NCBI GenBank assembly: GCA_023229865.1
Contig: JALNYL010000005.1
Span: 4,422 to 68,421 of the forward strand
Source of the DNA: Minisyncoccota bacterium
GTDB lineage: Bacteria; Patescibacteriota; Minisyncoccia; Phycocordibacterales; UBA1550
Length of the DNA stretch: 64,000 bases
Direction of reading: 5' to 3'
This document shows positions 4,263 to 62,627 of this stretch, piece after piece. Below the pieces are notes generated by a model. It was not told where the DNA came from and did not search any database. It saw nothing but the letters and a program-made list of their open reading frames with translations. The position numbers were made by a program, and so were the translations under genes. The first letter of the stretch is position 1. Every line of letters begins with the position of its first letter.

Positions 4263-6224
4263 ATGTATCTCTACGATAAAAATCGCATCACGTATTTTGC
4301 GGAAACAGATCGTCGCAATAAGCGCGTACCTTTTGGTATTAAAGCAGATGACCGCACGCGTCACATGTACATCATCGGTAAGACGGGTATGGGTAAGTCG
4401 ACCCTTATTGAAAACATGGTGGTGCAGGATATCCAAAACGGGGAGGGTTTTGCATTCATTGATCCGCACGGTAAGTCTGCGGCGCTTCTCCTTGACTACA
4501 TTCCACCAGAGCGTTTGAAGGATGTGATTTATTTCGCGCCATTCGATGTGGAGAATCCTATCTCATTCAACGTGATGGAAGATGTTGGTGCGGATAAGCG
4601 TCACTTGGTTGCCAACGGTCTCATGAGTGCCTTCAAAAAGATTTGGGGACCAGAGACATGGTCGGCACGTATGGAGTACATCCTTATGAACGCGCTCCTC
4701 GCGCTCCTTGAATACCCTGAGTCAACACTCCTTGGTATCAGCCGTATGCTCACCGATAAAGACTATCGAAAGAAAGTTGTCGACAATGTAAAGGATCCAT
4801 CGGTAAAGGCTTATTGGATTGATGAGTTTGCAAAATACAGCGAGAACTATGCAAAGGAAGCGGTTCCAGGTATTCAAAATAAGCTCGGACAGTTTACATC
4901 GAACCCACTCATTCGTAACATCATCGGACAACCGAAGTCATCTTTTGATTTGCGCAAGATGATGGACGAGCGCAAGATTCTCATCGTGAACCTTTCAAAG
5001 GGGCAACTCGGAGAGGGTAACGCAAACCTTCTCGGAGGTATGATCATCACCAAGATTTATCTCGCCGCGATGTCACGCGCGGATTTGACGGAAGGGGAAC
5101 TCAAAAAACTTCCAAACTTTTACATGTATGTGGATGAGTTTCAATCATTTGCAAACGAATCGTTCGCTGACATTCTCTCAGAGGCACGTAAGTACAAACT
5201 CGCGCTTGTGGTCGCGCATCAGTACATCAAGCAGATGGATGAAAAAGTTGCCGATGCGGTTTTTGGTAACGTAGGTACACAAATAATGTTCCGTGTAGGC
5301 GCCCCCGATGCGGAGGTTCTCGAAAAAGAGTACGCCCCAGTCTTCGTCGCTGAAGATATGGTGAGTCTCGGCTTTACGCAGATTTATTTGAAGCTCATGA
5401 TTGATGGTGTTGCGTCACACCCATTTTCTGCGGTAACCCTTGGACCTATTGCCCCTCCTGCAAAATCACTTCGCGAAGAGGTGCTCCGTCTTTCTCGTGA
5501 ACAATATGGTCGTCCCCGCGCGGAAGTTGAAAAAGCAATTGCTGCTTGGTATGGAAGTGCTAGTGCTGTTCCGCCACCTCCTCCATCAATGGAAAAGGAC
5601 ACTCCCCGAGAAGGGACTGCTCCTCGTGCTGATTTTCCTCCTCGCCCTCCGCGCCAGGAAGCACCTTCAGCACCAAGACGCGACGGAAATGCGATGTTTG
5701 CACGCCCTGTACGTGCTGAAAAGCCCCCTGTAAAGCACGAAGAAGCCCCCCGTGCCCCAAAGCTCGAAAAGCCTTTTGCGAACGCGTTTAAGGAGATTTT
5801 GGCGGTTGAGCCAGTTAAGAAGGAAACCCCTGAGGCTATTAGTTTGGCGGACATCCCTCAGAAGCGAGAAGCGCGTACTGTTCCATCGCAACCAAAAGGG
5901 AAGGGCCCTTCAAATGAGGGGTTGAGTAGTCTTAAGGCGGCCCTCGCTGGCGTTCTTGCGGAGACCCCCGCAAAGGCGGAAGAAAAGAAGATTCCTGCTC
6001 CTCGGCCACAACCACAAGAGGTGCCTAAACCAGAATACAAACCTGCAGAACCAAAACCTCAGACACCAGCACCTGCTCCTCAGCAGAATATTTCTGTCGC
6101 GGCTGAAACGACTCCATCTCCCGCAGCATCGGCTCCTCTCCGTGAGCGAGACATTCCAGAAACTCCAAAGCCAAAAGAAGTTCCTGAAGATGTTCTTGCG
6201 GCACTTCTCCGCGACGATGACTAG
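4263..6224 (+). CDS. FtsK/HerA/TraD(VirD4)-superfamily P-loop ATPase with disordered Pro/Ala/Lys-rich C-terminal tail
   Basis: 653 aa; Walker A IIGKTGMGKST, FIDPHG motif, Walker B YMYVDEFQ; C-terminal ~200 aa low-complexity PAPRPQPQEVPKPE repeats. Confidence 0.8.
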   Translation: MYLYDKNRITYFAETDRRNKRVPFGIKADDRTRHMYIIGKTGMGKSTLIENMVVQDIQNGEGFAFIDPHGKSAALLLDYIPPERLKDVIYFAPFDVENPISFNVMEDVGADKRHLVANGLMSAFKKIWGPETWSARMEYILMNALLALLEYPESTLLGISRMLTDKDYRKKVVDNVKDPSVKAYWIDEFAKYSENYAKEAVPGIQNKLGQFTSNPLIRNIIGQPKSSFDLRKMMDERKILIVNLSKGQLGEGNANLLGGMIITKIYLAAMSRADLTEGELKKLPNFYMYVDEFQSFANESFADILSEARKYKLALVVAHQYIKQMDEKVADAVFGNVGTQIMFRVGAPDAEVLEKEYAPVFVAEDMVSLGFTQIYLKLMIDGVASHPFSAVTLGPIAPPAKSLREEVLRLSREQYGRPRAEVEKAIAAWYGSASAVPPPPPSMEKDTPREGTAPRADFPPRPPRQEAPSAPRRDGNAMFARPVRAEKPPVKHEEAPRAPKLEKPFANAFKEILAVEPVKKETPEAISLADIPQKREARTVPSQPKGKGPSNEGLSSLKAALAGVLAETPAKAEEKKIPAPRPQPQEVPKPEYKPAEPKPQTPAPAPQQNISVAAETTPSPAASAPLRERDIPETPKPKEVPEDVLAALLRDDD

Positions 6225-6226
6225 GC

Positions 6227-6385
6227 TAACACCCCTCCCCAATAACTCTTGCACAAAGAATTCAAAAATTTTATGCGAGACGATGAAAAAAACGAGAGGA
6301 ATATCGAGATACTTCGAACGTTTTTTTCGAAGTCGTAGCAAAAATTTTCGGATTATCGTGGATAGGTTATTGGGGAGGGGTGTTA
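6227..6385. repeat. 20-bp perfect inverted repeat (taacacccctccccaataac / gttattggggaggggtgtta) flanking a 119-bp segment with an internal hairpin
   Basis: arms at 6227-6246 and 6366-6385 are exact reverse complements; inner hairpin acttcgaa/ttcgaagt at 6311-6333. Confidence 0.9.
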
Positions 6386-7776
6386 AAACAACACTACTCA
6401 TACTGGTGTTGTTTTTTGCACAGACCGCATCTGCGCAGGTTTTTATAAATGAGATTGCATGGATGGGGACGAACGTATCATCCTCGAACGAATGGATAGA
6501 ACTTTCCAATAGTGGCACGGAACAAGTCTCTCTTGAGGGGTGGATTCTTTCGATTGAAGGGAAAAAAGATATCGCACTTGTGGGGAATATTTCTGCGGGC
6601 GGTTTTTATCTTGTTGAGCGCACAGACGATTCTACGGTGCCGACAGTTGCTGCAGATGTTGTTTCGTCGTTTGGCGCGGGGATCAACAACACGGGAGCAA
6701 TTATCTCTCTTAAAAATACAAGCGGAGCAATCGTTGATCGCGTGGATGGTTCACAGGGGTGGCTTATTGGAGGGAACCAAGCGGGGGATAACACCACAAA
6801 AGATACTGCACAAAAAGGATTGAGTGCTTGGATGACCGGCACACCAACTCCGCGCGGTGCAAATGTTGGTGCATCGTCTCAGACACAAACGACGGTGACG
6901 ACACAGGAAACACCACAAGTGGTAGCCGCCTCTCAGTCATCTGCATTTCCTGTTGAGCCGCAAATTTTTACTGATGCGGGACCTGCGGCTCTCATTGTAT
7001 CAACGGGCGCAACCGTGACATTTTTGGGTCGCGTGTGGGGCCTCAAAAAAGAACCGATTGAAAATGCGCGCATGGTGTGGGCGTTTGGTGATGGCGGAGT
7101 GGCGGAGGGCGCTTCTGTCTCACACGTTTTTTATTATCCAGGAGAATACACGGTAGTACTCGACGCTGCGTCAGGATTTTATGCAGCATCTGATCGTATT
7201 CGTGTAACTGCGATAACCCCTAATATTTTACTACGTACAGGAGGCGATAGCACTCGTTCGTTTGTCGCACTCGAAAATAAAGGCAACGATGAACTCGACC
7301 TTTCTCTGTGGCAAATCGAGTCCGCAGGTAAGAAATTTATTATCCCCAAAAATACTTTCGTTGGCGCAAAGAAAATTCTCACCCTCGCGTCTGAAGTTAC
7401 TAACCTTGTGACACCATCGGGGAGTGAAGTGCTCCTTAATTTCCCAAACGGCACGCGTGTCGGCGCTCAAGCGACCGCAGCCGCTCCTGTTCTCGCAACA
7501 AATACTTTCGCGCCAAAAATAAATTCTGTAGTTCCGCAAGCGCGCGAAAAAGTAGAAGGTGTCCACAGCCAGGAGGCCTCGGTAATCGGTGCTCTCTCTG
7601 ATTCGTCAGCACCTGGAAAAGAAGATGGTCTGTGGCTTTGGTATTCGAGCGCAGCGATTCTCGGGGCGCTGGCTCTTTTGGGGTTGCGAGCAGTGCAGGG
7701 GAGTGGAGAAAAAACAACGTTCACCGCTGACGATTTTGAAATCATTGAAGAAACTGATAACACCGAACCGCACTAG
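6283..7776 (+). CDS. secreted/cell-surface protein with two lamin-tail domains (LTD) and C-terminal TM anchor
   Basis: signal peptide (LLILVLFFAQTASA), FINEIAW...EWIELSN LTD signature twice, C-terminal hydrophobic helix; start uncertain (ATG 6283 or TTG 6370), ORF-track start 5956 rejected because it overlaps upstream gene. Confidence 0.75.
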   Translation: MKKTRGISRYFERFFRSRSKNFRIIVDRLLGRGVKTTLLILVLFFAQTASAQVFINEIAWMGTNVSSSNEWIELSNSGTEQVSLEGWILSIEGKKDIALVGNISAGGFYLVERTDDSTVPTVAADVVSSFGAGINNTGAIISLKNTSGAIVDRVDGSQGWLIGGNQAGDNTTKDTAQKGLSAWMTGTPTPRGANVGASSQTQTTVTTQETPQVVAASQSSAFPVEPQIFTDAGPAALIVSTGATVTFLGRVWGLKKEPIENARMVWAFGDGGVAEGASVSHVFYYPGEYTVVLDAASGFYAASDRIRVTAITPNILLRTGGDSTRSFVALENKGNDELDLSLWQIESAGKKFIIPKNTFVGAKKILTLASEVTNLVTPSGSEVLLNFPNGTRVGAQATAAAPVLATNTFAPKINSVVPQAREKVEGVHSQEASVIGALSDSSAPGKEDGLWLWYSSAAILGALALLGLRAVQGSGEKTTFTADDFEIIEETDNTEPH

Positions 7777-52359: not shown

Positions 52360-53031
52360 ATGATTGAAATTATTCCCGCAATAATGCCACGTGACTACGA
52401 TGACCTCGATGAAAAGATGAGTCTTTTTGTGAACGTCGTGCCACTTGTCCAGCTCGATATTATGGATGGCAAATTTGTGCCTGCACGGACGTGGCCGTAT
52501 CCGCGCGACCCACACTTCGATGCCTTGATGACTGAAGAGGAGGGGATGCCGTCGTGGGAAGATATTAACTTTGAAGCGGACTTGATGATTAAAGATCCCG
52601 AGCTCTGGGTTGCAAAGTGGGTGATTGCAGGAGCAAGCCGCATCATTGTACACATCGAAGGGATGAGTGACTTCGAGACTATTCGTGCTGGGGTACCTGA
52701 GGGTTTGATCGAGCTCGGTCTTGCGATTAACACCACGACTTCACTCTCGGCAATCGAGCCATATCTCGATCGTATCGATTTCGTACAATGCATGGGGATT
52801 GCGCGCATTGGTTTCCAGGGGGAGCCATTTGATGAACGCGTACTCGACCATGTGCGCGCTATCCGCGCACTCCAACCCGAGATGCCTATTAGTATTGATG
52901 GCTCGGTAAACTTCGACACCGCGCGCGCCCTTGTGGATGCAGGAGCAACACGTCTCGTGTCGGGTTCGGCAATCCTTGAGGCAGATGACTTCGTCGGCGC
53001 TATTAACAAGTTTGAGAATTTGGTACAATAG
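52360..53031 (+). CDS. rpe: ribulose-phosphate 3-epimerase (divergent)
   Basis: DIMDGKFVP motif, TIM-barrel, pentose-phosphate operon context. Confidence 0.8.
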   Translation: MIEIIPAIMPRDYDDLDEKMSLFVNVVPLVQLDIMDGKFVPARTWPYPRDPHFDALMTEEEGMPSWEDINFEADLMIKDPELWVAKWVIAGASRIIVHIEGMSDFETIRAGVPEGLIELGLAINTTTSLSAIEPYLDRIDFVQCMGIARIGFQGEPFDERVLDHVRAIRALQPEMPISIDGSVNFDTARALVDAGATRLVSGSAILEADDFVGAINKFENLVQ

Positions 53032-53035
53032 CCCC

Positions 53036-53905
53036 ATGACACATCTCCACGACGAAAAAACAAAGTTCCTTGAAGAGAAAGCGATTGAGATTCGCAAGTC
53101 GATCATTGAGGCGCTCGTAGAAGCAAAATCAGGACACACCGCGGGGCCTCTCGGAATGACGGATATTTTTACCGCATTCTATTTTCATATTTTGAAACAG
53201 GATCCAAAGAATCCTACTTGGGAAGATCGTGACCGCGTCGTCCTTTCAAATGGACACATTTGTCCTGTACTCTATGCGACGATGGCTCACGCAGGATATT
53301 TCCCTGTGGAGGAGCTCAAAACACTCCGCAAATTCGGCTCACGCCTCCAAGGACATCCTCATCGTGAATATCTTCCCATGCTTGAGACAAGCTCGGGCCC
53401 ACTCGGGCAGGGGCTTTCACAGGCGGTCGGTATGGCGCTCGTTGATCGTCTTGATCGCGGACAGAATACCAATAGAACCGTGTACTGTTTCTTGGGGGAC
53501 GGTGAGCTCAATGAAGGACAGGTATGGGAAGCAGCAATGCTCGCAGGGAAGGAGAAGCTCCACAACCTTGTCGCAATCGTCGATCGCAATAATATTCAAA
53601 TCGACGGATACACAGAAAATGTGATGCCGCTCGAACCGCTCGCACTCAAGTGGGCATCGTTTGGTTGGCACGTGCTTGAGATCGACGGACACAATATGGC
53701 AGCCATCGTAGACGCCGTCGACGCAGCACGCGCAATTTTTGAAAAGCCGTCAGTGATCATTGCACACACAACCCCTGGTAAGGGGGTGGAGATGTTTGAG
53801 AATGACTACAAGTGGCACGGCAACCCCCCTAATAAAGAGCAGGGAGAGAATGCTCTTGCGGAGCTTCGCACACTTGGAGGGCAAATTGATAGTGAGCATC
53901 AATAA
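53036..53905 (+). CDS. transketolase, N-terminal (thiamine-PP-binding) subunit
   Basis: SGHTAGPLGM, GDGELNEGQVWEA TPP motif; ORF-track start 52931 trimmed to MTHLHDEK. Confidence 0.9.
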   Translation: MTHLHDEKTKFLEEKAIEIRKSIIEALVEAKSGHTAGPLGMTDIFTAFYFHILKQDPKNPTWEDRDRVVLSNGHICPVLYATMAHAGYFPVEELKTLRKFGSRLQGHPHREYLPMLETSSGPLGQGLSQAVGMALVDRLDRGQNTNRTVYCFLGDGELNEGQVWEAAMLAGKEKLHNLVAIVDRNNIQIDGYTENVMPLEPLALKWASFGWHVLEIDGHNMAAIVDAVDAARAIFEKPSVIIAHTTPGKGVEMFENDYKWHGNPPNKEQGENALAELRTLGGQIDSEHQ

Positions 53906-53906
53906 A

Positions 53907-54347
53907 ATGAACAATAAGAAGTCACAGCATTTTGTCTCAGTACTCGTGCTTTTTTTGACCAGAGTTGGTTTTGTTGTTTTGACCCCATTTTTAACCGCAA
54001 CATCTGTTTTTTTGTTTGGCACAGATTCAGTAATGGTTGAAGAATACTCACTCACTCTTCCCTTGATGTTTGAATTTTTTTCATTATTTGTCGCACTTCC
54101 ATTACTTTTAATACTCAGTTTTGTTAGGAAACCAAGGTTCTATGTGAGTACCTTTTTGGCAAATATTTTTGCAGCAACACCTTTTATTTTTGGTATTGCC
54201 TTGTTTGGAGGTTTTATGAAGTTCCCATACGTTACACAAATTTTTGCGCTTAAGGCAACTCTTTCCCCGGCAATAATCTCATTTATTTTTGGAGTTATTA
54301 TCAATTATCATTTCAAAAAAAAGCAAAATGAAGTAGAATCTAAATAA
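53907..54347 (+). CDS. hypothetical integral membrane protein inserted between transketolase subunit genes
   Basis: 146 aa, 4 TM helices; ATG one nt after tktN stop. Confidence 0.55.
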   Translation: MNNKKSQHFVSVLVLFLTRVGFVVLTPFLTATSVFLFGTDSVMVEEYSLTLPLMFEFFSLFVALPLLLILSFVRKPRFYVSTFLANIFAATPFIFGIALFGGFMKFPYVTQIFALKATLSPAIISFIFGVIINYHFKKKQNEVESK

Positions 54348-54348
54348 C

Positions 54349-55317
54349 ATGACCCCACTTAATCCAAAACTTTTTGATACTGACGTAGAGCAAGCTCCTA
54401 TTCGTGCTGGCTTTGGCGAGGGGCTCGTGCTTGCGGGACGTGCAGATGATCGCGTCGTCGCCATGTGTTGTGACCTCACGGAATCGACCAAGATGGATGC
54501 ATTTGCAAAAGAATTTCCAAAGCGATTTTTTGAAATGGGGATTATGGAGCAGTCATCGATTTCAGTTGCATCAGGGATGGCAGCGATGGGAAAGGTTCCT
54601 TTTGTCTCGTCATACGCGATGTTTTCTCCAGGACGTAGCTGGGAGCAGATTCGTACAACGGTTTGTTATAATGATCGTCCGGTAAAAATCGTTGGTTCGC
54701 ACGCGGGGATCTCTGTTGGGCCTGATGGAGGGACCCATCAAGCGATTGAGGATATCGCTATCACACGTGTTCTTCCTAATATGACCGTCATCGCTCCGTG
54801 TGACAGTATTGAAGCGCGCAAAGCAACTCTCGCAATGGCAAAAACAAATTCGCCAACCTATATTCGTCTCGCGCGCGAGAAGACACCTATCGTTACTACG
54901 GAAGAAACGCCATTTGAAATAGGGAAGGCACAAGAATTTTTCCGCACCGAAAGTCCCAAGGTTGGCATTATTGCATGTGGTGGACTCGTTTACAATGCGC
55001 TTGTGGCGGCAAAAGAGCTTCAGGCCGAGGGAGTTAACACTGTTGTGCTCAATATAGCAACGATCAAGCCACTTGATCGTGATGCGGTGATTGCACTTGC
55101 AAAAGAATGCAATGCTATCGTCTCTGTAGAGGAGCATCAGGTCGCAGGAGGTCTTGGCTCGGCTATTGCAGAAGTTCTCGCCGTAGAGCATCCAACAAAG
55201 ATGGCATTCATCGGTGTGCATGATAAGTTTGGCCAGTCAGGTACGCCAACAGAGCTCATTGAGCACTACGGTATGGGGATTAGTCATATCAAGGAGGCAG
55301 TTAAAAAACTTTTGTAA
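54349..55317 (+). CDS. transketolase, C-terminal (pyrimidine-binding) subunit
   Basis: FFEMGIMEQSSISVASGMAAMG..., classic split-tkt C subunit. Confidence 0.9.
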   Translation: MTPLNPKLFDTDVEQAPIRAGFGEGLVLAGRADDRVVAMCCDLTESTKMDAFAKEFPKRFFEMGIMEQSSISVASGMAAMGKVPFVSSYAMFSPGRSWEQIRTTVCYNDRPVKIVGSHAGISVGPDGGTHQAIEDIAITRVLPNMTVIAPCDSIEARKATLAMAKTNSPTYIRLAREKTPIVTTEETPFEIGKAQEFFRTESPKVGIIACGGLVYNALVAAKELQAEGVNTVVLNIATIKPLDRDAVIALAKECNAIVSVEEHQVAGGLGSAIAEVLAVEHPTKMAFIGVHDKFGQSGTPTELIEHYGMGISHIKEAVKKLL

Positions 55318-55434: not shown

Positions 55435-55923
55435 ATGAACAATAAGAAAATAATTCTTATAGGTGTGGGAGGTATTATTGCTGCGCTTCTTTGTGTCCTC
55501 TTTTTTAATATGCAAAAGAGTGAGAATCTTTCCCCTCAGTCAGGGGAACAAACAACAATAAGTGCACAACCTGTAAAAACAGATTTTGGCATCAGTGTGC
55601 CAGCCGACTTTCCTGCCGATATTCCTACAGAGAAAGGAGCGAAGGTTGAACAGAGCTATAGTTTAAACTATGCTAACCAGAAGCAGCTCACCATTGTTTT
55701 CCTTTCTGCAAAAACGGTAAAAGAAAATTATAATCTCTATGCAGATTTTCTTAAAAAACAGAATTGGAGCGTTGCCAATACTTACGAAGGGATACCAGTT
55801 TCTTCTCTTTATGCTACAAAGGAAAACAATGACATTAATATAACTATTAGCGAAAACATCTCGACCCCAATGATTAAATCACAGGTAAGTATTAGTGTAT
55901 TAAAAAATGAAAAATCAAATTAA
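55435..55923 (+). CDS. hypothetical membrane-anchored protein
   Basis: N-terminal TM helix, 162 aa. Confidence 0.5.
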   Translation: MNNKKIILIGVGGIIAALLCVLFFNMQKSENLSPQSGEQTTISAQPVKTDFGISVPADFPADIPTEKGAKVEQSYSLNYANQKQLTIVFLSAKTVKENYNLYADFLKKQNWSVANTYEGIPVSSLYATKENNDINITISENISTPMIKSQVSISVLKNEKSN

Positions 55924-57694
55924 TTCAGAATCAAGGTTGAGGGTTTTTCTTATCCACTCTCTGTGGGCAAAGTTTGGTTTGGGTGTTTTAGTAATTGTAG
56001 CCATCTCCTCCTTTTTAAATATTTCTTTTGCGGGGACACAAACATTTACCAATGGTGCTGGTGGCTGGGTTGCAATTCCTACTGGAGTAACAACGGTAAC
56101 TTTTGTTGCTCAAGGAGGGAATGGTTATTCTACCGGAAGTGGAAATGCTGGCGGCGGTGGTGGTGGGGCATTTGCGAGAACTGCCTCAATCCCAGTTATT
56201 TATGTTGGCGGCGGTGGTGGTGGTGTTAACGGCGGAGCAGGGGGTTCAACATCTGGTACTGGTGCTGGGCTTGGTGGATTTTCTATTAGTCCAATACCCG
56301 TTTGGTCACAATATGGGGGTAATGGGACTGAGGGCGTTGGTGGAAATGGGTGGAGCTCTTGGGGGTTCATTGCTGGGGTTGGTGGGATTGGGGATAATTC
56401 GGGAACTATTGGCGCCAGCAATGTTGGCGGCGGTGGTGGAGCTAGTGGCTTTTCTGCTGCTGGGGGCAATGGTGGGGTCCTGGGCAATCCTTATGGAATT
56501 AAATTTGGCGGTGGCGGTGGCGGTGGTTATGGCGGTGGAGGAGGTGGTGTAGGAGTGTATAATCCTAGTGGAGTTAGTGGAGGGACCCCCGCTGGCGGCG
56601 GCGGCAGCTATGCTGCTCCAGGGATGTCAGTCCCTTCTCCTTCTGGAAGATCAATTCTTCTTTCAAATATTGGGAACCCTTCTCAAATCTATCTTGGGAC
56701 AGGCCTTGGGGGTCTTAGTGATAATGGAGTCCGTGCTCAAGGGGGAACCATTACGATTTCTTGGCCCGATCCGGGTACGGTGAATGTTTCTTCAAACGTT
56801 GCCTCCTCGTGGACAATCACTGGGCCTATGACCATTGCGGGGTCGGGGATTTCACAATCTGCTCCAGCGGCTCCAGGTTCGTATACTATTACTTGGGGGA
56901 GTGTTCCTGGATACATAACTCCAACATCGCAGAGTATTTCTCTTACTCCGGGAGGAACGATCTCTTTTAATGGAAATTATATAGCACCCAATACTGCCCC
57001 TGTTGCACCAATAATCTCAGGGCCTATTACTGTTGCCGAAAATACAACGCAAACATATTCATTTGTTGCCACTGATCCACAGGGCGACCAAGTGCGTTAT
57101 GGTGTTGATTGGAATATGGACGGGGTTGCAGAAGTATGGGTCCCAGCTGGAGTATCTTACGTAAACTCTGGAACCTCTCAATCAACAACCTACAGTTGGT
57201 CCACCACGGGGATAAAGACATTCCAAGTCCTTACTCAAGATGCCCCTGGCCTCAATTCTTCATGGGCAACATATACCATTACTGTCACGTGTTCAAACGG
57301 TACCAACAACCCTCCGACTTGTACTCAGTGTCCCGACAATGAGGCTTATCAAACTTCACACTGTGTTGCTTGCGGGGGAACTGGTTGTACCGGGGTCCCT
57401 GGAGGAAGTGTTTCTGACCCAACCGGAGGACTCATTTGTAATAATGGGGCACAATCTCCTGCTTACTGCGCGGACTGCCCCGTTGGAAAAACATTAGTAG
57501 GGGGTGTTTGTGTAGATAATTGTACGAATGGGGCAACGAATCCACCAACTTGCAATGCGTGTTCCTCTGGGTATGAACTTATTCTCGGCGTCTGTACCCT
57601 TATCCCTAGTTGCGACTCTGATAATATCTGTGAAGCAGGGGAAACTATGTCTAATTGCGCCCGTGATTGTAACCCGCAATTTCAGCAGTTCTAG
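55907..57694 (+). CDS. glycine-rich cell-surface protein with PKD/Ig-like middle region and C-terminal cysteine-rich repeats
   Basis: signal anchor, GGxGGG repeats over ~230 aa, then ~13 Cys in CxxC-rich C-terminal 110 aa. Confidence 0.7.
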   Translation: MKNQINSESRLRVFLIHSLWAKFGLGVLVIVAISSFLNISFAGTQTFTNGAGGWVAIPTGVTTVTFVAQGGNGYSTGSGNAGGGGGGAFARTASIPVIYVGGGGGGVNGGAGGSTSGTGAGLGGFSISPIPVWSQYGGNGTEGVGGNGWSSWGFIAGVGGIGDNSGTIGASNVGGGGGASGFSAAGGNGGVLGNPYGIKFGGGGGGGYGGGGGGVGVYNPSGVSGGTPAGGGGSYAAPGMSVPSPSGRSILLSNIGNPSQIYLGTGLGGLSDNGVRAQGGTITISWPDPGTVNVSSNVASSWTITGPMTIAGSGISQSAPAAPGSYTITWGSVPGYITPTSQSISLTPGGTISFNGNYIAPNTAPVAPIISGPITVAENTTQTYSFVATDPQGDQVRYGVDWNMDGVAEVWVPAGVSYVNSGTSQSTTYSWSTTGIKTFQVLTQDAPGLNSSWATYTITVTCSNGTNNPPTCTQCPDNEAYQTSHCVACGGTGCTGVPGGSVSDPTGGLICNNGAQSPAYCADCPVGKTLVGGVCVDNCTNGATNPPTCNACSSGYELILGVCTLIPSCDSDNICEAGETMSNCARDCNPQFQQF

Positions 57695-57751
57695 AAGATG
57701 CAACAAAAATACCGACTTTATTAAAGTCGGTATTTTTGTTGCATCTTCTAG
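57691..57751. repeat. perfect 61-bp palindrome (30-bp arms, 1-nt centre) between convergent genes; probable very stable bidirectional terminator
   Basis: ctagaagatgcaacaaaaataccgacttta-t-taaagtcggtatttttgttgcatcttctag; left arm includes the stop codon of the upstream gene. Confidence 0.9.
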
Positions 57752-57757
57752 TGTTTA

Positions 57758-58759
57758 TTAGTTGAGTTTTACCGCTTTGTAATCAGCTGGTGCCTCTGCG
57801 AGATATTTTTCAAGCTGCTCGCGCGGGAGGAGGCCTTCTTGTGCTCCCACGTACTGCACTACAGACATTGAGTTGATCGGTGCCCATGCGATAGCTTCAG
57901 ATGGGGTCTTCCCAAGAGCGAGTGCTGAGACGAATGCCGATGCAAATGAATCTCCGGCACCTGTGCGCTCGTACGGTGGCTTTGGGTCTGGGTAGATAGG
58001 CATGAACCAGTTGTCGACGCCGTCAAACACATATGCTCCCTTTGGTCCGTCGGTAATAACTACAATCTTTGGTCCGAGGGCTGCAATCATTTTTGCAAGA
58101 TCCTTGCGCTCAATCATTTCGTCCTTCAAAATTTGTCGCGCTTCTTCTACGTTACAGAAGAATACTTCAGTGTGTGCATAAAGATCCTTGAGTGCTTCTA
58201 CGCCGAGCTTGATTTGGAAACCGCCTGGCTGGAATGAAAGCTTGGTCTCAGGGTGCGCTGCGAGGTAGCGACTGATCTCATGATGATACTCGAGTGACTT
58301 CTCGTTGAGCGATGAGAGGTAGAGCCACTTTGGACCAACGTCACCAAGGGGAAGTGTGTAGGGGAAATCTTCATGCTTGATGAGGATAGTGCGCTCGCTG
58401 TCGTACCAGAGTACATAGTGATAGTTGGTTTTGATCCCGTCGTATTCCTTAATGTACTGTGTGCTTACTCCGTCGTTTTTGAGTGATGCGAGACACTTCT
58501 TCCCGTCGTCATCGTTACCGAGGTTGGTGATGAGTGCGCTTTTGAGGCCGAGGCGTGAAGCAGACACGCAGGCGTTCGCGCTGTTGCCTACGGCGTAGCA
58601 AACCTTCACAAAGTCAAAAGGAACTTTTGCGCCAAATGGCATACAGAGTTCACAAGCATTTGTGTCAACGCGACAGGTTGTGTGAGCGTGATCTTCTTTG
58701 AGGCGAATAAATGCATCGACGACCGTGTCGCCAATACCAACGAAATCTAATTGGTCCAT
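57758..58759 (-). CDS. PfkB-family carbohydrate kinase (ribokinase/fructokinase-like)
   Basis: GAGDSFASAFV motif 2 and N-terminal GIGDTVVD. Confidence 0.8.
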   Translation of the reverse strand: MDQLDFVGIGDTVVDAFIRLKEDHAHTTCRVDTNACELCMPFGAKVPFDFVKVCYAVGNSANACVSASRLGLKSALITNLGNDDDGKKCLASLKNDGVSTQYIKEYDGIKTNYHYVLWYDSERTILIKHEDFPYTLPLGDVGPKWLYLSSLNEKSLEYHHEISRYLAAHPETKLSFQPGGFQIKLGVEALKDLYAHTEVFFCNVEEARQILKDEMIERKDLAKMIAALGPKIVVITDGPKGAYVFDGVDNWFMPIYPDPKPPYERTGAGDSFASAFVSALALGKTPSEAIAWAPINSMSVVQYVGAQEGLLPREQLEKYLAEAPADYKAVKLN

Positions 58760-58859
58760 AAATTAATTATTTTCTCACTATTAATCCCTATATTCTATCA
58801 TACTAGAGCTTTTTTATGGTAGAATATCTTCATTAACAACAAAGAAATTAAGCGTTTTT

Positions 58860-59726
58860 ATGACATCAATTCCAACATTACGAGAGACGATTGCGCAGGC
58901 GGAAGCCAAGGGTGTTGCAGTGGGGCATTTTAATATTTCAGATATGGAGGGCTTCTGGGGGGTTATTAAGGGGGCAAAGGCAGCGGGGGTGCCCGTAATC
59001 ATCGGTGTCTCAGAGGGTGAGCGTGACTTCATTGGCATCAAGCAAGTCGTCGCAATCGTGAAGAGCGTACGTGATGAAGGATACCCTGTGTATTTGAATG
59101 CTGATCACACCTACACCTTTGAGCGCGTGAAGGAAGCTATAGATGCAGGATTTGATGCAGTCATCTTTGATGGAGCGAAGCTATCATTTGAAGAGAATGC
59201 GCGCGTTACGAAACAGTGTGTTGATTATGCACGCAGTGTGAATCCTGAAATTATTGTTGAAGCAGAACTCGGTTACATCGGTTCTGGCTCAAAAGTGCTT
59301 GATGAAGTGCCAGAAGGAGTATCTCTTGAAAATCTCACGACGGGGGAGGAGTCTGCACGTTTTGTACAAGAGACAGGAATTGATCTCTTTGCCCCGTCAG
59401 TGGGGAATATTCACGGTATGCTCCGCAATGCTCCTGAGCCACGTCTCAATATTGAGCGCATTAAGGAAGTTCGCCAGGCTGCGGGAGTGCCACTCGTGCT
59501 TCACGGAGGTTCAGGGACGAGCGATGAAGATTTCCAGGAGGCAATCAAGGCGGGGATTGGTATCATTCACATCAATACAGAAATCCGCGTTGCATACCAC
59601 GATGCAGTAAAGGCGTATTTGGCAGAGCACCCAGATGAGACTGCTCCATATAAATTTATGAAGCCAGCCGTTGATGCGGTGGCGGCGGTGGTGGAGAGGA
59701 GAATGAGATTGTTTAATATGATGTAG
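58860..59726 (+). CDS. fba: class II fructose-bisphosphate aldolase
   Basis: GVAVGHFNISDMEG..., LNADHT, HGGSGTSDE metal-binding motifs. Confidence 0.9.
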   Translation: MTSIPTLRETIAQAEAKGVAVGHFNISDMEGFWGVIKGAKAAGVPVIIGVSEGERDFIGIKQVVAIVKSVRDEGYPVYLNADHTYTFERVKEAIDAGFDAVIFDGAKLSFEENARVTKQCVDYARSVNPEIIVEAELGYIGSGSKVLDEVPEGVSLENLTTGEESARFVQETGIDLFAPSVGNIHGMLRNAPEPRLNIERIKEVRQAAGVPLVLHGGSGTSDEDFQEAIKAGIGIIHINTEIRVAYHDAVKAYLAEHPDETAPYKFMKPAVDAVAAVVERRMRLFNMM

Positions 59727-59777
59727 GCGTCGCTTTGCTCCAGTCAAAAGTTAAAAGTTAAACGTCGAAAGTGAATT

Positions 59778-59817
59778 CACGAAGGACGGTTTGCCTACGG
59801 CAAACCGTCCTTCGTTG
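59778..59817. terminator. bidirectional terminator (16-bp stem) preceded by aaagttaaaag motif
   Basis: cgaaggacggtttgcc-tac-ggcaaaccgtccttcg. Confidence 0.8.
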
Positions 59818-59908
59818 CTTGCAAATTGTTTATAAAAGCGTAGAACTAAATTACCTATCCGAATGCGAGATAGGGATGAAAGGGGCTGTGCCCCAGAAGG
59901 GTTTGAAA

Positions 59909-60388
59909 ATGTTGAAATTGTCAATTACACAAGGCCCCATAATTAACGGGGAAGATGTTGGTTTTGCTATTTCATTGAAACATATTAAGGAAATTTCAAA
60001 TTTCCTGTGCGAGTGGTATGAAGCAGTTCCTAGTGGAATTGCTAAACATATTGAGGTAATAAGAGTTGTTCCTTCGAATGGTAAACATAAATACGCGCGA
60101 GTGCTTATTGAGGTAATTCTCTCTGGGGATTCTTCGCGCGTTGGTGTTACAGGAATATCGGATGGCTTCATCTTGACTCCCTGGAAAAGTAGTATAGGCT
60201 ATTGTTTTTATTCATACGATTCATCTATGGATATTCTTGATGGTGATGCGAGGAGAGAAGTTGAAAAGGAGCTGAATGAGAGACTCGCGAGTGCTATCTG
60301 TCAGCAATTGGAAAGTCATCAAGCGCAGCACAAATATTTTGATTCTTTGTTCCGGCAGCTTGAAGGTGCAGAAAAATCGATTTTGTAG
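59909..60388 (+). CDS. hypothetical protein
   Basis: 159 aa; AAGGG 9 nt upstream; ORF-track start 59771 rejected (overlaps terminator hairpin). Confidence 0.5.
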   Translation: MLKLSITQGPIINGEDVGFAISLKHIKEISNFLCEWYEAVPSGIAKHIEVIRVVPSNGKHKYARVLIEVILSGDSSRVGVTGISDGFILTPWKSSIGYCFYSYDSSMDILDGDARREVEKELNERLASAICQQLESHQAQHKYFDSLFRQLEGAEKSIL

Positions 60389-60392
60389 CATT

Positions 60393-60426
60393 CCGCCCGC
60401 CGATTATTCGGCGGGTTTTGTTTTTG
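60393..60426 (+). terminator. intrinsic terminator cccgccg-attatt-cggcggg + T-run
   Basis: seen directly. Confidence 0.75.
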
Positions 60427-60430
60427 CCTC

Positions 60431-60457
60431 ATTTACATAGGGTAACCCTATGTAAAT
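60431..60457. promoter_or_regulatory. 27-bp perfect palindrome (13-bp arms) immediately upstream of rplY promoter; candidate dimeric-regulator operator
   Basis: atttacatagggt-a-accctatgtaaat; followed by ttgcct...tgtatact promoter-like elements. Confidence 0.5.
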
Positions 60458-60495
60458 TTGCCTTTTTCATCTTATTTATGTATACTAGCCCCACT

Positions 60496-61134
60496 ATGAC
60501 TATCACATTAAAAGGAGAAATTCGCGACCCAAAGACAAAGCTTTCGGCTATTCGCGCAGAAGGTTTTATTCCCGCTGTATTTTACGGACACAATCAGGAG
60601 GCAACTCCATGTGTTTTTGCTGCAAATGAGTTTGTAAAGGCTTGGAAAGCAGCAGGCGAGTCAACAGTGGTTGTTCTCGAGATGCCAAAGGGAAAGGTGA
60701 ACGCACTCATTACTGAGGTTCAGGTTGACCCAGTGAAGGGTATGCCAATTCACGCTGACTTCTATGTTATCGAAAAGGGACACGAGGTTACCGTAAAGGT
60801 TCCTGTTGAGTTTACTGGTGTGTCAGAGGCAGTGAAGACTCTTGGTGGTCAGCTCGTGAAGGTTATGCACGATCTCGAAGTGAAGGCACAGCCAGAAAAT
60901 CTCCCTCATAGTTTTACCGTAGATATCGCTCCTCTCGTTGCGCTTGATAGTCAGATTCTTGCAGAGAGCATTGTTCTTCCAAAGGGAGTTACCCTCGTAA
61001 CCCACGGAAACGAAGTTGTTGCAGCTATCGCCGTTGCAAAGGAGGAAGTAGAAACTCCCGTAATGGATCTCTCAGCTATTGAAGTAGAGAAGAAGGGCAA
61101 GAAGGAAGAGGAAGCAACAGAAGAAGCAAAATAA
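60496..61134 (+). CDS. rplY: 50S ribosomal protein L25 / general stress protein Ctc
   Basis: two-domain L25/Ctc, acidic Lys/Glu-rich tail. Confidence 0.9.
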   Translation: MTITLKGEIRDPKTKLSAIRAEGFIPAVFYGHNQEATPCVFAANEFVKAWKAAGESTVVVLEMPKGKVNALITEVQVDPVKGMPIHADFYVIEKGHEVTVKVPVEFTGVSEAVKTLGGQLVKVMHDLEVKAQPENLPHSFTVDIAPLVALDSQILAESIVLPKGVTLVTHGNEVVAAIAVAKEEVETPVMDLSAIEVEKKGKKEEEATEEAK

Positions 61135-61139
61135 ATCTC

Positions 61140-61190
61140 ATACAACAAAAAAGCCCGACGCGCGTGCGCATCGGGCTTTTTTGTTGTATG
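61140..61190. terminator. long bidirectional terminator (atacaacaaaaaagcccga...tcgggcttttttgttgtat)
   Basis: 19-bp outer stem incl. A/T tracts. Confidence 0.85.
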
Positions 61191-61250
61191 GAGTATTACA
61201 TGTTGCATGTTTGTCGCGCTCCTCATTTGACGATATAATATACATTACCT

Positions 61251-62627
61251 ATGCCAAAAAGCATTCTTGGAAAAATTGTTGTTATTGTGGTTTTTGCTGC
61301 GATTGCATTTGAGGGTTTTACTCTTATTGCAGGCGCGCAAACCTCGCCTTCGTGCAACCCCGAAGATGCTGCTTGTCGCGCGAAGCTTGAGGCCGAGCTT
61401 GCGGCTGTTGAAAAAGAGATTAATGTTCAAGCAGCGCTCGTCGAAAGTAAGCAACGTGAAGGGGTCTCTCTTGAACGTGACTTGGTGATTTTGTCCGCAC
61501 AGATTCAAAAAGCAAAACTTTCTATCAAGGCACAAAATCTTTCTATTGCGAAACTCACTGATGATATCGGTGTGAAGAATCGCACTATTACGAAATACTC
61601 AGCAAAAATCGACCTTGAGCGTGAGTCGCTCGCGGGGCTCATGCGTCGCACCAACGAGCTCGATACCTACTCAATCATTGAGGTCGCACTCTCCGACAAA
61701 GAGATGTCAGATTTTTTTAGCGATTTGGATAACTTTGAATATGTTGAAGACGCGATAGGGAAGTCTCTCGAAGAAGTTGGTGCAGCGAAGAAGGTGACCG
61801 AAGAGGCAAAGGCGACCCTTGAAGAAAAAAAGAATAAAGAAATCGACCTCCGTTACCAGAAGGAACTTGAGCAGAAATTCCTCTCTTCAAAAGAAAAGGA
61901 AAAAGCCCAAGTGCTCAAAGTCACTAAAGGACAAGAGGTTGCTTATCAAAAAGTTTTGAGAGATAAGCAAGCAAAGGCTGCGTCGATTCGCGCGGCGCTC
62001 TTCGCCCTCCGCGATACGGGAGAGATTCCGTTTGGCACCGCATACGATTATGCAAAGCTCGTGTCACAGAAGACAGGTGTGCGTCCTGCGTTTCTTCTCG
62101 CTATTTTTATGCAGGAGTCAGGGTTCGGGAAAAGTCAGGGCTCGTGTTACCTCAAAGATACTACAACAGGAGCAGGGGTGGGTAAAAATACAGGAACGCC
62201 ATTTGCGAATGTTATGAAACCAAACAGAGATATTGAGCCGTTTATTGATATCACGAGTCGTCTCGGAAGGGATCCGTTTAAAACAGCTGTTTCGTGCCCA
62301 CAGCAAGCAGGTTATGGTGGGGCAATGGGACCTGCGCAATTTATTCCTTCAACGTGGGTGCTTTTTGAAAATCGCCTCAAGAATGCCCTCGGGGTCACTT
62401 CTTCTGATCCGTGGCGGGCGCGTGACGCGTTTATGGCGGCAGGATTTCTCTTGAAAGACAATGGTGCGAAGGCAAATTCGTACAGTGCAGAGCGTAATGC
62501 TGCGTGTCGATATTTCTCAGGCTCTGTTTGTTCGAAGTCTTCTTGGGCAGCAACGTATGGTTCTCAGGTTATGAGCAAGGCGGAAACCATCCAAACCACC
62601 ATGATCGACCCTATTGAGAACCTATAA
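61251..62627 (+). CDS. secreted coiled-coil protein with C-terminal lytic-transglycosylase (SLT)-like domain
   Basis: signal peptide, ~250-aa heptad-rich region, FLLAIFMQESGF catalytic-Glu motif. Confidence 0.65.
   Translation: MPKSILGKIVVIVVFAAIAFEGFTLIAGAQTSPSCNPEDAACRAKLEAELAAVEKEINVQAALVESKQREGVSLERDLVILSAQIQKAKLSIKAQNLSIAKLTDDIGVKNRTITKYSAKIDLERESLAGLMRRTNELDTYSIIEVALSDKEMSDFFSDLDNFEYVEDAIGKSLEEVGAAKKVTEEAKATLEEKKNKEIDLRYQKELEQKFLSSKEKEKAQVLKVTKGQEVAYQKVLRDKQAKAASIRAALFALRDTGEIPFGTAYDYAKLVSQKTGVRPAFLLAIFMQESGFGKSQGSCYLKDTTTGAGVGKNTGTPFANVMKPNRDIEPFIDITSRLGRDPFKTAVSCPQQAGYGGAMGPAQFIPSTWVLFENRLKNALGVTSSDPWRARDAFMAAGFLLKDNGAKANSYSAERNAACRYFSGSVCSKSSWAATYGSQVMSKAETIQTTMIDPIENL

Follow-up and report, generated by a model that had tools for sequence, protein, structure and literature searches.

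Large extracellular cysteine-rich proteins have been reported in the Candidate Phyla Radiation, in Peregrinibacteria, where a role in attachment was proposed for them (PMC4736985), and the most highly expressed genes of methanogen-attached Paceibacterales include those for proteins that combine a signal peptide with PKD and immunoglobulin-like (Ig-like) domains (PMC10936435). Here we analyse a gene pair found in a 64,000-nucleotide stretch of a Minisyncoccota bacterium genome (contig JALNYL010000005.1, positions 4,422 to 68,421; hereafter the window). The larger gene codes for a 595-residue protein that is, on balance, probably a binding protein assembled from interchangeable modules, exported through Sec and associated with the cell envelope of a Patescibacteria-type bacterium. 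This reading fits the high expression of PKD/Ig-like proteins in host-attached Paceibacterales (PMC10936435), and an adhesin role would be plausible. The smaller gene, directly upstream, codes for a membrane-anchored partner that recurs next to related modular proteins.

The 595-residue protein resembles the Peregrinibacteria proteins in having a signal peptide, a high cysteine content and a weak similarity to a Myxococcus repeat, and in both cases the source lineage is of a small-genome, symbiont type; the Peregrinibacteria proteins differ by their average length of ~1,655 residues and their origin in another phylum-level group (PMC4736985). Since those examples have the same weak similarity to DUF4215, the class of exported cysteine-rich proteins is already known, while the glycine-rich head, the partner gene and the C-terminal tail described below go unmentioned in that paper (PMC4736985). 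Sortase-anchored adhesins of Gram-positive bacteria (MSCRAMM type) likewise combine a signal peptide with a variable region for binding and an Ig/CnaB-like stalk, the CnaB-like resemblance consisting of weak Foldseek matches. In contrast to them, the 595-residue protein has no LPXTG motif, C-terminal hydrophobic segment or basic tail, so any anchoring must work differently from the sortase type. Taken alone, as first described in an earlier note on this DNA (the original prediction), the protein is nothing unusual, its class being on record in the literature; new beyond that note are the 28-residue repeat, which has no library model, the C-terminal tail and the upstream partner gene.

Gene and domain organization

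The two open reading frames (ORFs) and the segments of the larger product are as follows; pLDDT is the AlphaFold2 predicted local distance difference test score.

55435-55923, + strand: partner ORF, 162 residues, comprising a membrane anchor at the N-terminus and ~115 residues of extracytoplasmic domain
55907-57694, + strand: ORF of the exported modular protein, 595 residues, intact, single ORF
56033-56776, + strand: glycine-rich head domain, residues 43-290, by composition and homology
55907-56032, + strand: predicted signal peptide, residues 1-42, by hydropathy and the junction seen in homologues
56777-56986, + strand: beta-sandwich module of 'SSWTITGP' subtype, residues 291-360, AlphaFold2 pLDDT 96-98
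56990-57286, + strand: PKD-type Ig domain, residues 362-460, by sequence and fold match to PDB 4xed
57290-57604, + strand: cysteine-rich stalk, residues 462-566, three 28-residue four-cysteine units and a two-cysteine insert
57611-57670, + strand: C-terminal four-cysteine knot CDSDNICEAGETMSNCARDC, residues 569-588, motif kept in relatives
57671-57691, + strand: C-terminal tail NPQFQQF, residues 589-595, with a terminal Phe

The larger ORF is a single intact frame, as originally proposed, and homology running in one frame through all modules shows that it is the real gene. Its sole public gene call, P0014, comprises the last 200 residues (57092-57694 of the window); the call begins within the PKD domain, with Val396, and the annotation pipeline evidently missed the glycine-rich front of the gene. 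The general picture is borne out: the protein is modular, rich in beta structure and, by prediction, exported; it contains a PKD domain, and its C-terminal part is rich in predicted disulfides. Searches of Pfam, NCBIfam and PHROGs with the whole protein and with isolated segments returned nothing except a sub-threshold PKD match.

The N-terminus is hydrophobic, with Kyte-Doolittle means of ~2 across residues 13-43. Relatives with the same front end share the junction ..S-[FSL]-A | G-T-Q-T-F directly past the hydrophobic core, and because of this position a cleavable Sec signal peptide, with probable cleavage after ..NISFA, is likelier than the signal anchor first suggested, of which the hydrophobic stretch stands and the anchoring role is not supported. 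A TTG at codon 11 is an alternative start, with the signal peptide kept either way.

Residues 362-460 match the PKD domain of PDB 4xed, part of an M14-like peptidase of a Thermoplasmatales archaeon, both by sequence (E = 2.3e-9) and by fold (AlphaFold2 pLDDT >90; Foldseek E = 6.5e-8, template modelling score TM 0.79, root-mean-square deviation 2.8). Against the Pfam PKD profiles PF18911/PF00801, with their cut-off of 27 bits, PKD_4 reaches only 12.4 bits (E = 0.17), though profile positions 1-85 of 85 are covered. The anticipated PKD/Ig-like segments are in this way supported as a PKD-type Ig fold that stays under the Pfam threshold. The same PKD subtype is also present in Thermoplasmatota genomes; unlike this protein, the archaeal homologues have no cysteine repeat and end in hydrophobic tails, not in a Phe tail. 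A second beta-sandwich (residues 291-360) sits between the glycine-rich region and the PKD domain. No Pfam family covers this module, and its only Foldseek matches, to CnaB-like domains and to transthyretin-like domains of carboxypeptidases, are weak (E >= 2.4e-3). Structured domains are nonetheless predicted with high confidence for both parts, at pLDDT >90 for the PKD domain and 96-98 for the beta-sandwich.

A small membrane-anchored partner encoded upstream

The stop codon of the partner ORF lies 17 nucleotides inside the 595-residue gene, overlapping its start. The same arrangement is found for eight related modular proteins, each with a partner homologue directly upstream and overlapping stop and start, which makes nine cassettes including this one. 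Three of the eight are genome loci, one in Ca. Nomurabacteria GW2011_GWC2_42_20 and two in one Minisyncoccia metagenome-assembled genome (MAG); the five others lie next to the genes of P0008, P0011, P0009, P0003 and P0006. The partner has no relatives in Pfam, NCBIfam or PDB, and its homologues score E = 1e-42 to 1e-94 against a four-member profile.

Heads differ among the cassettes and comprise the glycine-rich type seen here, Gly_rich_2 domains, beta-propeller repeats and a cysteine-containing domain. The common element of the cassette proteins is the 'SSWTITGP' subtype of the beta-sandwich: the partner is present with 9 of 10 proteins that have this subtype and with 0 of 18 that do not (Fisher p = 1.4e-6). 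Identity across cassettes is 62-89% in the 'SSWTITGP' module and 50-77% in the partner ectodomain, and everything else varies.

These exchangeable heads also bear on a purely structural role, in which the protein would be an S-layer-associated or wall-spanning rod having no specific ligand. Its repetitive, rigid modules, its conserved terminus and the great abundance of its relatives in the lineage would suit such an envelope component. Highly variable N-terminal heads, however, fit diversifying recognition better than a lattice protein, and the protein occurs a single time in the 64-kb window; we consider the structural role improbable.

Recognition of the C-terminal tail by the partner was rejected as a candidate function, because the two are uncoupled: P0006 has a partner and ends in ..GVET, P0001 has the tail and no partner, and ~16 tail-bearing genome loci have no partner either.

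Small membrane-anchored proteins unrelated to the partner family precede two further modular proteins, P0001 and P0002, neither of which has the 'SSWTITGP' module. A 277-residue protein (L001, 5163-5996) precedes P0001, and a 177-residue protein (L059, 2471-3004) precedes P0002, with its gene overlapping the start codon.

Cysteine-rich stalk and terminal knot

All 18 cysteines of the protein fall in residues 462-588 and none in the first 461 residues, an outcome for which even placement gives a chance of ~0.225^18, or ~2e-12. The cysteine-rich module originally placed at the C-terminus is located there, and its estimated ~13 cysteines in ~110 residues are replaced by this count. The unit is C-x9-C-x2-C-x10-C, 28 residues long and present in three copies, with a 22-residue insert carrying two cysteines behind unit 1 and a four-cysteine knot at the end. 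From 36 units in relatives the consensus is C-[TN]-N-G-A-x-N-P-P-x-C-x-x-C-x-x-G-x-x-L-V-x-G-x-C-V-x-N, and P0018 has up to ~22 tandem copies. AlphaFold2 models one beta-hairpin per 28-residue unit (pLDDT 68-87).

The pattern is conserved in homologues: P0001 is 58% identical over residues 361-595 (E = 7e-94) and the cysteine columns are near-invariant in an 11-sequence alignment. The knot motif C-x5-C-x2-GE-x4-C-x3-C stands ahead of the tail in P0001, P0008, P0009, P0027, P0031, P0035, P0039, P0050, P0055, P0081, P0083 and others.

A likeness to EGF, furin or GCC2_GCC3 modules, which had been suggested from the cysteine spacing, is not upheld, as residues 461-595 alone have no Pfam match at E <= 10. 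The 28-residue repeat profile finds in PDB only an insignificant match to an EGF-like hairpin of Pfs28 (E = 0.46 over 15 residues). The top 50 Foldseek matches of the C-terminal model include none to the cysteine part, in a search dominated by the PKD domain, and the cysteine-rich 135 residues alone, searched in a word-indexed protein database, returned only P0014, the protein's own partial gene call. The closest library family, linked only indirectly through P0018, is PF13948 DUF4215 ('Myxococcus cysteine-rich repeat'), likewise made of short extracellular cysteine-rich repeats that open with C-x-N/D-G; read by eye, the terminal knot, written as CxxxxCxxGExxxxCxxDC, resembles the start of DUF4215. 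P0018 matches it with E = 1.6e-15 over 9 stretches. The unit described here differs by its N-P-P turn and its G-x-x-L-V-x-G-x-C hairpin, and most relatives have no match; neither the 595-residue protein nor P0047 and P0092, which carry 7-9 units, match DUF4215. By these profile comparisons the 28-residue four-cysteine repeat appears to be a distinct one that domain libraries do not model. The module was first described as uncommon in bacteria, which may hold for bacteria generally and does not hold for Patescibacteria, given the up to ~22 copies in relatives and the published cysteine-rich proteins (PMC4736985).

The C-terminal tail

The motif [FYWVIL]-x-[EQK]-[FIL]-COOH forms the terminus of 43 of the 160 homologues, where composition predicts 0.5, and the last residue is Phe in 44 of the 160. 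The tail follows three unrelated types of last domain, namely the cysteine knot, an InlB-B-repeat-like domain and an Ig-like domain. Most ORFs of the Patescibacteria genome loci (among L003-L037) end with it, whereas the archaeal PKD homologues end otherwise. In AlphaFold2 models its pLDDT is 44-67, for which reason it is probably flexible.

The tail fits none of the known sorting signals (LPXTG/sortase, PEP-CTERM, MYXO-CTERM and similar), which consist of a signature motif, a hydrophobic helix and a basic tail: no hydrophobic C-terminal stretch is found in any of the 43 tail-bearing homologues, nor ahead of the ..CNPQFQQF end of this protein. It does not agree with the outer-membrane beta-signal either; the terminal Phe is present, but the conserved aromatic residue is at -4 and Glu/Gln at -2, and the domains that precede it are cysteine knots or Ig-like modules and not a beta-barrel. 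NCBIfam has no match to this protein or to nine relatives. No description of the tail was found in the literature searched and no library model represents it.

Neither end of the mature protein has a membrane segment, LPXTG motif, lipobox or known sorting domain. Together with the predicted flexibility of the tail, this would agree with a freely secreted protein, either a toxin carrier or a soluble protein for binding or scavenging, in which knot and tail would serve only folding or stability. Such free secretion seems unlikely to us, in view of the conserved and translationally coupled membrane-anchored partner, the strong conservation of the tail across otherwise unrelated final domains and the stalk-like architecture of Ig modules and cysteine repeats, typical of surface proteins.

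The glycine-rich head

Glycine makes up 89 of the 248 residues (36%) in the segment 43-290, against ~10% across the remaining protein, with six runs of at least 4 Gly. Its edges are the beta-strand motifs TQTFTNGAGGWVAIPTGVTTVTF and GGTITISW. The ~230 residues of GGxGGG repeats first reported in this segment are not a tandem array: Tandem Repeats Finder detects just two weak micro-arrays of 23 and 44 nucleotides (scores 32-46), the longest perfect tandem is (GGCGGT)3, 18 nucleotides long, and Gly is encoded by its four codons in about equal shares. The coding 14-mer ggcggcggtggtgg singled out at that time does occur three times, at 56150, 56207 and 56426, as dispersed copies.

P0010 and P0012 share this glycine-rich domain with 51-55% identity, many invariant non-glycine positions and fixed spacing, including the motif SGRSIxLSxIGxPxQIYLG. 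These sole close relatives carry the domain at their C-terminal end, preceded by a membrane anchor, a conserved 'AWTAPTxxPPTGNVSAPINTG..DQTKAG' segment and an Ig-like domain, so the glycine-rich domain occupies one end of the protein in both arrangements. A hotspot for length variation, originally proposed for this coding repeat, is not supported: the segment has no real tandem array, and scans of metagenomes with the domain alignment, and then with the degenerate pattern SGRSIxLSxIGxPxQIYL, gave no match and hence no strain variants.

True Gly_rich_2 domains occur in sister proteins with the same layout of signal peptide, glycine-rich domain and sandwich (P0003, P0006, P0008, P0009, P0011), all of them, as listed above, encoded in cassettes of the same kind. 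We read the segment of the 595-residue protein as a putative divergent relative of this head. Like PF21722 Gly_rich_2, it is a terminal domain of ~200-250 residues with ~36-39% Gly; it has the N-terminal strand signature of the family (QTFTSSGTFTVPAGVTSV..GGGG), its opening strands match as QTFT..G.[FW]..P.GVT.V and its closing strand ends in W. Comparison by hhalign of the subfamily with 35 Gly_rich_2 domains gives a probability of 95.3% and E = 2.2e-8 over the first 33 columns. With only six sister domains the comparison was weaker, at 30%, and the larger family alignment was needed for this reason. Unlike true members, the protein and its two close relatives have no score beyond those 33 columns, they carry the private SGRSIxLSxIGxPxQIYLG motif, and the core fold is of low confidence in AlphaFold2, with low-confidence strands (pLDDT 50-67) at both ends of the domain. 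PF21722 itself gives no match in hmmscan of the full protein or of residues 43-290 at E <= 10 (cut-off 24.3 bits), and a Foldseek search with the model of the N-terminal half, in which the core is unfolded, has no match for the glycine-rich part.

Instead of a folded binding head, the segment could be a variable coat, or a spacer of low complexity and intrinsic disorder. AlphaFold2 pLDDT below 50 for residues ~102-247, the missing Pfam, PDB and PHROG matches and bias-corrected profile scores equal to those of shuffled sequences all point that way. This account is nevertheless doubtful, if a serious alternative: the invariant non-glycine residues and fixed spacing shared with P0010 and P0012, the match of the first strands to Gly_rich_2, the position held by a true Gly_rich_2 domain in sister proteins and a coding DNA that is not a slippery repeat speak against it. 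The AlphaFold2 alignment moreover held just two close homologues for this domain.

Gly_rich_2-type domains are frequent at phage fibre tips (PMC9608196). The receptor-binding tip of cyanophage Pam3 gp24 (7yfw/7ypx), which is related to phage S16 gp38 and to the ALK ectodomain, folds as a TNF-like sandwich on which extended glycine motifs form a lattice, and it acts in host recognition (PMC9608196). The profile of the sister Gly_rich_2 domains matches this tip (7yfw, E = 0.006) as well as a PHROG annotated 'tail fiber assembly' (phrog_863, E = 1e-9), and other parts of P0010 and P0012 have weak matches to PHROG virion proteins. The gene might on these grounds be the captured remnant of a phage tail-fibre receptor-binding protein in the chromosome. 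In contrast to the Pam3 fibre, however, the 595-residue protein is a cellular and, by its predicted signal peptide, Sec-exported protein; it has no PHROG match, housekeeping genes lie all around it and its half made of PKD domain, cysteine repeats and tail has no relative among 2.9 million viral contigs. For these reasons we rejected a phage origin, which is very improbable.

Distribution of the modules and gene neighbourhood

Among 1.84 billion representative proteins, 3280 match at E <= 1e-3, 892 at E <= 1e-10 and 71 at E <= 1e-30. The 3280 share at least one module with the 595-residue protein, in differing orders, and none matches it end to end, the best coverage being 39%. The nearest relatives of the part with PKD domain, cysteine repeats and tail are almost all in Patescibacteria MAGs (Paceibacterota, Kaiserbacteria, Nomurabacteria, Zambryskiibacteria, Minisyncoccia, 'Saccharibacteria'), and more distant, PKD-only matches are in Thermoplasmatota archaea. 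The best partial homologue, P0001, encoded on a 784-kb contig, has this half, knot and tail included, behind a Kelch/CARDB head. In the 161 proteins collected, the wider beta-sandwich type amounts to 239 copies in 54 proteins, the PKD subtype to 349 copies in 105 and the cysteine repeat to 51 copies in 13, with knot plus tail detectable in 11. Judged from these module counts and orders, the architecture is one shuffle among many.

Genes neighbouring the pair code for GatB, GAPDH, ribulose-phosphate epimerase, a split transketolase, a PfkB kinase, a class II aldolase, L25 and an SLT-type transglycosylase, with a SecA gene at greater distance; Rfam detects no RNA in the window. The locus of P0011 (L057) has in common with window positions 55435-62627 an aldolase, L25, an SLT_2 transglycosylase, the partner and a glycine-headed modular protein, in rearranged order and with an aldolase of class I in L057 and of class II in the window. 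The likeness of the neighbourhoods suggests that P0011 is the positional counterpart of the 595-residue protein, with a true Gly_rich_2 head.

The transketolase halves are encoded at 52931-53905 (N-terminal) and 54349-55317 (+) (C-terminal). Between them, the ORF at 53760-54347 codes for a hydrophobic product of 195 residues with no Pfam match and overlaps the end of the first half. A second exported protein, with a lamin-tail domain and a PKD domain, is encoded at 5956-7776 (+), the listed ORF start being probably too far upstream. Unlike the 595-residue protein, it has a classical hydrophobic C-terminal anchor (..LWLWYSSAAILGALALLGLRAV..). Its gene adjoins that of a 653-residue protein (4263-6224, +) that matches TrwB/VirD4-type coupling proteins and HerA-like ATPases and may, from these matches, be part of a conjugation-like or DNA-uptake apparatus.

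Proposed function

In the reading that we favour, of an exported and envelope-associated binding protein, the signal peptide would be removed first. The mature protein would open with the glycine-rich head, most likely its ligand-binding end by analogy with the sister Gly_rich_2 domains that match the Pam3 tip, and would continue with the 'SSWTITGP' beta-sandwich, the PKD domain and a rigid rod of 28-residue repeats stapled by disulfides. The rod would end in the small cysteine knot and a free C-terminal tail with its terminal Phe. Translational coupling would link synthesis of the protein to that of its small membrane-anchored partner, which probably docks to the beta-sandwich module or helps assembly. 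A non-covalent link to the partner would hold the large protein at the surface with neither a sortase signal nor a membrane segment of its own, where the head could bind a host cell.

Several results weigh against this reading. The partner association comes from few and non-independent samples, two cassettes being from one MAG and L010 and L013 being near-identical; P0005 has the sandwich subtype and no adjacent partner; and identities of module and partner do not co-vary (r = -0.14). Concerning the head, the protein fails the profile of the 35 Gly_rich_2 domains, its score of -27 bits falling among those of 500 shuffles, where P0003 reaches 89 bits. AlphaFold2 leaves the core of the glycine-rich domain (~residues 102-247) unfolded at pLDDT 31-50, so that a structured head is putative.

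A more general proposal, which we put forward tentatively and as rather a long shot, is that Patescibacteria possess a tethering system in which a ~160-residue membrane-anchored protein docks the 'SSWTITGP' sandwich and displays varied heads (glycine-rich, beta-propeller, cysteine-rich) with no need of membrane anchors or sortase. As a separate proposal, the C-terminal [FY]-x-[EQ]-F-COOH might be a terminal recognition signal across the lineage, for retention, processing or quality control. A tethering system of this kind may have no earlier description.

Patescibacteria are ultra-small and depend on hosts; to our knowledge, little has been learned of how they attach to them, and their exported proteins are for the most part unannotated. 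The locus offers three testable handles on them: a 28-residue four-cysteine repeat missed by domain libraries, a shared terminal tail, and a conserved gene pair that joins modular proteins of varying head to one kind of small membrane protein. Should the latter act as a tether or an assembly factor, it would explain how adhesins are displayed without classical anchoring machinery and would provide a marker for the adhesin repertoire in any Patescibacteria genome.

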